DNA of 64,000 nt, taken from a virus. Taxonomy: Duplodnaviria; Heunggongvirae; Uroviricota; Caudoviricetes. Below the pieces are notes generated by a model, which saw only the letters and a list, made by a program, of their open reading frames with translations, ran no database searches and was not told the DNA's origin. The stretch's first letter is position 1. Each line of letters opens with the position of its first letter. The position numbers were made by a program, and so were the translations under genes. Shown piece after piece: positions 16,125-16,215 of the stretch. The DNA lies in IMG/VR virus record IMGVR_UViG_3300021431_002946, positions 225,291 through 289,290 of that record; one strand, written 5' to 3'.

Positions 16125-16215
16125 AAATTTTTTCTTATTATTAGTATTATAAACATGGGATTTTATAAAAACCTATTTATTTATACTATTTTAAGAAAGG
16201 AAAGAATATTAGTTA

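Follow-up and report, generated by a model that had tools for sequence, protein, structure and literature searches.

A guide in the CRISPR array of a huge rumen phage matches the promoter of its own Cascade operon and may repress it

The Cascade locus and its promoter region

The stretch of viral DNA analysed here (the window, 64,000 nt) comprises bases 225291-289290 of a 467,383-bp virus record, a phage record with direct terminal repeats and a G+C content of 29%. Between positions 16216 and 23692, the genes of a type I-E CRISPR-Cas system were found in the order cas8e, cse2, cas7, cas5, cas6e, array, cas3 (Table 1), and the type I-E gene set is complete as judged by Pfam matches. The Cas2-like domain with which Cas3 begins is a Cas2 of the I-E type, and the remainder of the protein consists of the HD nuclease and the helicase. 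Cas1 was looked for across the complete 467-kb genome and was not found; the Cas1-Cas2 adaptation module of type I-E is not present in this phage. Since Cas3 is encoded by the phage, a full match of a guide to the phage's own DNA would be dangerous. The gene at 23789-24589, which follows the cas3-distal array, gave no match in a Pfam search, and a dense cluster of 53 Rfam tRNA matches, on the + strand throughout, occupies positions 52380-64000.

Table 1. Features of the Cascade locus and its upstream region (positions in the window)
Feature	Position	Strand	Remarks
PAM-like flank AAC	16152..16154	+	directly 5' of box
Seed-paired box	16155..16168	+	pairs with guide S3; the mismatched position 12 is a flipped position
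33-nt protospacer-equivalent footprint	16155..16187	+	15/33 positions identical to S3
Promoter-class motif CTATTTATTTATA	16173..16185	+	one-base variant of CTATTTAATTATA
13-nt motif CTATTTAATTATA, copies	8490, 14950, 16173, 24656		20 further sites in the genome
Cascade operon	16216..20617	+	Pfam matches for cas8e, cas11/cse2, cas7, cas5, cas6e
cas8e	16216-17763	+	CRISPR_Cse1; start codon ATG at 16216
cas11/cse2	17738-18244	+	CRISPR_Cse2, 22.8 bits, just under the cut-off of 24.6
cas7	18265-19494	+	Cas_CT1975
cas5	19507-20052	+	Cas_Cas5d
cas6e	20033-20617	+	CRISPR_assoc
CRISPR array	20666..20928	+	five repeats of 25-28 nt, four spacers of 33 nt
Spacer S1	20692-20724	+	
Spacer S2	20750-20782	+	
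Guide S3	20809-20841	+	matches cas8e promoter; also resembles host PolC-type polymerase genes
Spacer S4	20868-20900	+	
cas3 with N-terminal Cas2-like domain	20981..23692	+	Cas_Cas2CT1978, Cas3_HD, DEAD, Cas3-like_C_2
One-spacer remnant mini-array after cas3	23694..23768	+	relatives' S3 homologue occupies this place

The array is small and fixed, and all five of its repeats differ from one another. Each forms a short hairpin followed by a tail (handle) of about 7-8 nt; the handle GTTTTTCT ends four of the repeats, and the terminal repeat ends with GTTTACAT. Guide S3 is the third of the four array spacers, so it is not a stand-alone degenerate mini-array. The repeats that flank it, R3 and R4, are hairpins with the GTTTTTCT handle, and the same is true in the relatives described below. 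A possible extra guide, S0, lies before R1 (20609-20663); it starts with ATG, and its degenerate handle overlaps the stop codon of cas6e.

The start of S3, ATGGGATTTTAAAAG, resembles the sequence at 16155-16169, ATGGGATTTTATAAA, in the spacer between cas8e and the gene upstream of it. An earlier note on this DNA had pointed to a seed match at this site, and its account was borne out by direct sequence comparison: positions 1-11 and 13-14 are identical, the mismatch is at position 12, and AAC stands directly 5' of the site. When every sixth base is ignored, pairing breaks at position 15, giving an effective seed of 14. Given the low identity over the footprint as a whole (Table 1), the R-loop is not expected to be complete. 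The cas8e ATG follows the site at a distance of 61 nt (the earlier estimate was ca. 50-60 nt). The box ends 4 nt before the motif at 16173-16185, and this motif coincides with protospacer positions 19-31, so that the proposed 33-nt footprint does cover it.

The motif had been taken for a promoter, and its distribution agrees with that assignment: it recurs 23 times on the coding strand, mostly directly before genes. With both forms counted, the genome has 24 copies, of which the + strand carries 23; AAAG usually precedes the motif, and 17 of the 24 are followed by a ribosome-binding site and a start codon within 90 nt. The same motif is found in relatives before cas8e and before other genes. 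The recurrent 13-nt motif therefore likely represents a phage-specific promoter class. A sigma-70-like pair at 16113-16141 would place the transcription start upstream of the site. No terminator was found upstream of the cas operon, which makes read-through from upstream genes possible.

An ATGGGA box was sought at the other 23 copies of the motif and was absent from all of them, which indicates that the box is not part of a general promoter. The box as a recurrent motif was rejected as well: it has four genome copies only, and none of these is beside another promoter motif. Nor is it a remnant of a degenerate repeat, since the likeness stops short of the repeat and AAY, instead of TCT, forms the flank. 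As a separate observation, the motif at 8490-8555 and those at genome positions 54724, 95836 and 178101 are followed within ca. 20 nt by related sequence and then by a hairpin that carries a T-run; the four copies are candidates for short transcripts or attenuators.

Chance expectation and conservation in related phages

The significance of the match was assessed with 1000 first-order Markov copies of the window, in which an effective seed (every sixth base ignored) of at least 14 was scored for the four spacers, on either strand and anywhere in the sequence. Such a seed was present in 6.4% of the copies. Scaled to the 91-nt intergenic spacer before cas8e, the rate is ca. 1e-4, or about 1 in 10,000 windows. 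Thus the match passes the shuffle-type check that had been proposed for it. When six guides were scanned against the 467-kb genome, the promoter site was the sole AAN-flanked effective seed of at least 10. The one further S3 seed match in the genome, of 13 nt, is at position 129085; it is flanked by TGA, apparently lies in coding sequence, and was judged to be a chance match.

An empirical null was obtained from 164 tests, in related loci, of a spacer against the region upstream of its own cas8. Guides outside the S3 family all scored 12 or less (one 12, one 10, the remainder 9 or less), while guides of the S3 family scored 13, 13, 13, 13, 13, 14 and 18. The score of 12, from spacer c of locus L004 at -133 of cas8e, was dismissed as chance: its flank is GTA, and it has no counterpart in the L002 group.

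A comparison of Cas7 with metagenome assemblies gave 63 relatives (48-98% identity), in some cases on contigs as long as 532 kb. The clade of the window phage comprises about 20 Cas7 clusters at 82-98% identity. Of the related loci, 19 were fetched for comparison. The close clade (Cas7 identity 82-86%) consists of the L002/L003/L014/L015 group, L004, L020 and L021. A blastn search of 15400-21000 against phage GenBank records gave no match. In IMG/VR, no relatives were found by a Cas8e peptide scan and a Cas7 profile scan, and no match was obtained with exact or degenerate patterns for the 3' part of S3, the S3 family or the S4 family.

The cas8e upstream regions of the close clade, five variants in all, align only at AAY followed by ATGGGAYTTTA and at the promoter motif. 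Both the S3 homologue and the promoter box are kept in four lineages, the window included; the homologues are identical to S3 at 25-26 of 33 positions. In the window phage the guide is in the array between cas6e and cas3. In the L002/L003/L014/L015 group, L004 and L021, the homologue is in a second array after cas3, ca. 7.7 kb from the box; their cas6e-cas3 arrays hold other spacers, and the partner was located by a motif scan. Each guide pairs with the box of its own genome. The effective pairing is 14 in the window (flank AAC), 13 in the L002 group (AAT), 13 in L004 (AAC), and 18 in L021 (AAT), where mismatches are found only at positions 6, 12 and 18. In all cases, pairing is limited to the PAM-proximal part (13-18 nt), with a total identity of 15-21 out of 33.

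Position 7 of the box changes together with position 7 of the guide: guide and box are T/T in the window and L021, and C/C in the L002 group and L004. A guide of either type fits every box of its own type, while pairing across types drops to 6 nt. The box of L020 is of the L021 type; the L020 contig does not extend as far as the arrays. That the pair of spacer and promoter should be conserved and co-vary among relatives had been named earlier as a check on the idea, and both are observed, the co-variation resting on a single variable seed position. In the Cas7 tree (support 80-91%), L004 is basal and the L002 group is next to the window; the guides of L002 and L004 are identical although the tree does not group these two as sisters. 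With this topology, the T/C state needs two coupled changes, or else recombination of the locus, and guide and box may have been moved jointly by recombination. We therefore count at least one coupled guide-box change, not four independent ones. No guide-promoter pair was found in the more distant relatives with long uniform arrays (L005, L006, L009, L016 and L017).

The distance from box to motif takes two values, 18-20 and 28-29 nt, which are about one helical turn apart. The longer one is found in the L002 group and in L020/L021, and direct occlusion of the motif is less obvious there. In all cases the box is within 30 nt of the motif, despite differing upstream genes, terminators and inserted ORFs. 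The space between promoter and cas8e is also plastic among relatives: L021 has an additional small ORF there (1046-1222), and L004 a terminator-like hairpin (2620-2650) between the cas promoter motif and cas8e that is similar to those described above.

Host-gene look-alikes and the proposed autorepression

The guides resemble conserved coding segments in genomes of rumen Clostridia (Saccharofermentans, Ruminococcaceae, Oscillospiraceae); the genomes searched are species representatives and not the true host, so the identities given here are lower bounds. Host genes were assigned by Pfam. The S4 family resembles codons 8-18 of the glutamate dehydrogenase gene, gdhA (22-28/33), with AAT or AAC as the flank at 18 of 18 gdhA-type sites. 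S1 resembles, in antisense, the C-terminal part of a carbohydrate phosphorylase gene (24-25/33, flank AAC), and a guide of relatives (L002, 10285-10317; L021, 8757-8789) resembles rtcB, the gene for RtcB (25 of 26 pattern positions, flank AAC). The S3 family resembles polC, which encodes the PolC-type DNA polymerase III alpha (23-26/33, flank AAT or AAC); these look-alikes were found with the S3 pattern relaxed at position 12. A look-alike of S2 was sought in five host-like genomes, and none was found.

The flank at these four independent host-gene look-alikes of clade guides, AAY, is the same as that beside every promoter box. This agrees with the claim of the earlier note that the AAC at the site acts as a PAM, and AAY is the probable PAM of the phage Cascade. 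Rumen Oscillospiraceae and Saccharofermentans-like Clostridia are the probable host group. The analysis thus yields a probable PAM and a probable host group for an uncultured huge rumen phage.

In all four look-alikes, codon third positions fall on guide multiples of three, which places the unpaired sixth bases on wobble sites. Between phages, most differences among guide variants lie at third positions of codons, as though the guides were tracking host alleles, and those among the three S3 variants affect third positions in the polC frame, or first positions where the change is conservative. The possibility that the S3 family has no coding pattern was rejected, since the apparent in-frame stop sits at the unpaired position 12. 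S3 thus behaves like the other host-directed guides and not like a target-less degenerate guide. The register claimed for the promoter match also held up, in that mismatches within the paired stretch are confined to positions 6, 12 and 18; because S3 tracks a coding target, these positions coincide also with codon third positions, and this weakens the periodicity from ca. 1 in 816 to ca. 1 in 20. Since S3 resembles host polC and the box carries the PAM and the first 13-18 nt, the box looks like a seed-plus-PAM mimic of the polC protospacer.

In type I-E systems, the PAM is read by Cas8e, pairing begins at the seed and advances in 5-nt segments, and Cas3 is recruited only once the R-loop is complete. 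In the mechanism that we propose, phage Cascade loaded with the S3 crRNA would recognise AAC at 16152-16154, and the crRNA would pair with the template strand over 16155-16168, producing an R-loop of ca. 14 bp. The body of the complex would then overlie the promoter motif at 16173-16185, immediately downstream of the paired stretch. This motif would drive cas8e through cas6e, and probably also the array in this phage, and Cascade-S3 on the box would present a roadblock to RNA polymerase, with negative feedback on the output of both Cascade and guides. Since pairing cannot pass position 14, Cas3 should not be licensed; since the array is probably on the Cascade transcript in the window phage, the feedback loop would be closed. 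A single guide would then be weapon (against host polC) and sensor at once. The most probable reading of the sequence data (probability of about 0.7), in our view, is that a dual-use guide mediates CreR-like autorepression in a type I-E system that is encoded by a virus and has no Cas1. S3, which sits in a normal-looking array and has a near full-length polC look-alike, is better described as a dual-use guide than as a dedicated CreR.

A wider interpretation, which we advance tentatively and rate at slightly under even odds, is that the array is hard-wired for attack on the host, that the polC guide doubles as an autoregulatory sensor, and that host gene, guide and box co-evolve. Guides would then keep pace with conserved coding segments of host genes, namely polC, gdhA and the carbohydrate phosphorylase gene for this phage and rtcB for its relatives; they would be placed so that their unpaired sixth bases meet codon third positions; and the box would be a mimic of seed plus PAM of the polC target, planted on the phage's own cas promoter.

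Several alternatives were weighed against autorepression. A pure chance match in AT-rich DNA is extremely improbable. Recurrence of an 11-mer is possible in a genome with 29% G+C, and a 13-nt seed match does exist once elsewhere in this genome, but with the wrong flank; the Markov simulation, the 164-test null and the whole-genome AAN-flank scan all oppose chance, as does the recurrence of the guide-box pair in three further lineages, and the comparative data have already in effect refuted it. It is unlikely that the box is a decaying polC-like protospacer, either captured host DNA or an old trace of self-targeting, with no regulatory role. Such an origin would fit with the presence of T or C at position 12 of the box, as in host polC (all guides have A), with the identity between L002 and host polC that reaches three bases 5' of the flank, and with the short in-register identities retained in L002 and L021 (positions 20-23 and 22-25). 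However, flank and seed alone are conserved where the neighbouring bases fail to align, while a neutral relic should decay as they do; position 7 of the box tracks the guide of the same genome; and the box stays close to the promoter motif while its surroundings vary.

That the box is an upstream promoter element, or binds a transcription factor of phage or host, and resembles the guide only by coincidence, is quite improbable. The two box-motif distances would be compatible with a protein that binds along one face of the helix, but the other 23 copies of the promoter motif all lack the box, the box changes in step with the guide, and it is very unlikely that seeds of 13-18 nt, each with the correct flank, would arise by coincidence in four lineages. 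Finally, Cascade could bind the box for a purpose other than repression of cas, for example to time or park the complex directed at polC, or to repress related phages with the same box type during co-infection. Since guides of one type fit all boxes of that type, cross-talk between related phages is possible; yet one site cannot titrate a complex, and feedback most simply accounts for a box that lies on the promoter of the complex's own genes; this explanation, too, has little probability. Use of S3 as an inter-phage weapon derived from the cas promoter of a relative was rejected, because the PAM-distal part of S3 has no match in any of the five promoter variants.

The proposed autorepression has several known counterparts. 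In the type I-E system of Salmonella enterica, CreR pairs with 15 nt next to an AAG that lies upstream of casA, and the casA promoter is repressed ca. 8.6-fold (Liu et al., bioRxiv 10.1101/2023.03.10.532045). The likeness consists in PAM-proximal pairing only (13-18 nt here), beside a PAM and before the first Cascade gene. CreR, however, comes from a stand-alone degenerate mini-array on a bacterial chromosome, acts ca. 140 bp upstream and has no known second target, whereas the guide described here is inside the working array of a viral system without Cas1, uses AAY, abuts the promoter and has a polC look-alike. Mini-array guides with seed matches of at least 10 bp to cas8 promoters, predicted to be regulatory, are widespread in I-E and I-F1 systems, and every sixth base makes no contribution to their pairing (Shmakov et al., bioRxiv 10.1101/2023.03.03.530964). 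Seed length, proper PAM and idle sixth positions at a cas8 promoter are shared with the window phage. The units in that work, in contrast, are separate two-repeat mini-arrays in cas intergenic regions of cellular genomes, and its viral mini-arrays act on host systems, while the target here is the phage's own Cascade. With CreA (CreTA, type I-B of Haloarcula hispanica) the present case has in common partial complementarity that leads to Cascade binding and repression and not to Cas3 cleavage; CreA chiefly guards a toxin gene, and no toxin partner was seen at the window locus.

Viral Cracr RNAs and arrays hijack host Cas proteins and shut down host immunity (Liu et al., bioRxiv 10.1101/2024.10.29.618823). 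They, too, are crRNA-like guides carried by phages, in some cases as arrays, and use seed pairing to silence a cas promoter, but the window system is not a Cracr, as the full Cascade and Cas3 are encoded by the phage and the target is in its own genome. Huge phages have been described with compact arrays, without Cas1, Cas2 or Cas4, and with spacers that target genes of the host (Al-Shayeb et al. 2020, PMC7162821). The window array resembles these in being compact, host-directed and devoid of adaptation genes; regulation of a phage's own cas genes by such a guide is not part of that account. A limited search of the literature gave no account of a virus-encoded CRISPR-Cas system that regulates itself, which does not prove that none exists.

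Chromosomal autorepression of cas is so far known from dedicated degenerate mini-arrays; the apparent regulator in this phage is an ordinary array member with an attack target. Regulatory guides can thus hide in normal arrays and escape searches for mini-arrays, and a phage can make the level of its CRISPR weapon depend on how much of one specific loaded complex is available. T versus C at position 7 provides two natural specificity types. If the wider, co-evolutionary interpretation is true, no earlier case would have been described in which a CRISPR-Cas system encoded by a virus regulates itself, and S3 would be the first canonical guide to combine an interference target with a regulatory target matched by the seed only.

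Array and Cas variation among the relatives

The arrays of L002, L004, L015 and L021 are similar to that of the window in that neighbouring repeats all differ, with compensatory changes that preserve the hairpin and the 8-nt handle. Long arrays with uniform repeats are found in the more distant relatives L009, L016 and L017. In this small sample, diverged repeats and conserved spacers co-occur with no cas1 found, its absence referring to the whole genome for the window phage and to the fetched loci for the relatives. A SIR2-family gene directly follows the second array in L002, L003 and L014. Cas3 is without the Cas2-like domain in L005, L006, L009 and L011, and in L007, a more distant relative, a Cas2-Cas3 fusion is followed by cas1.
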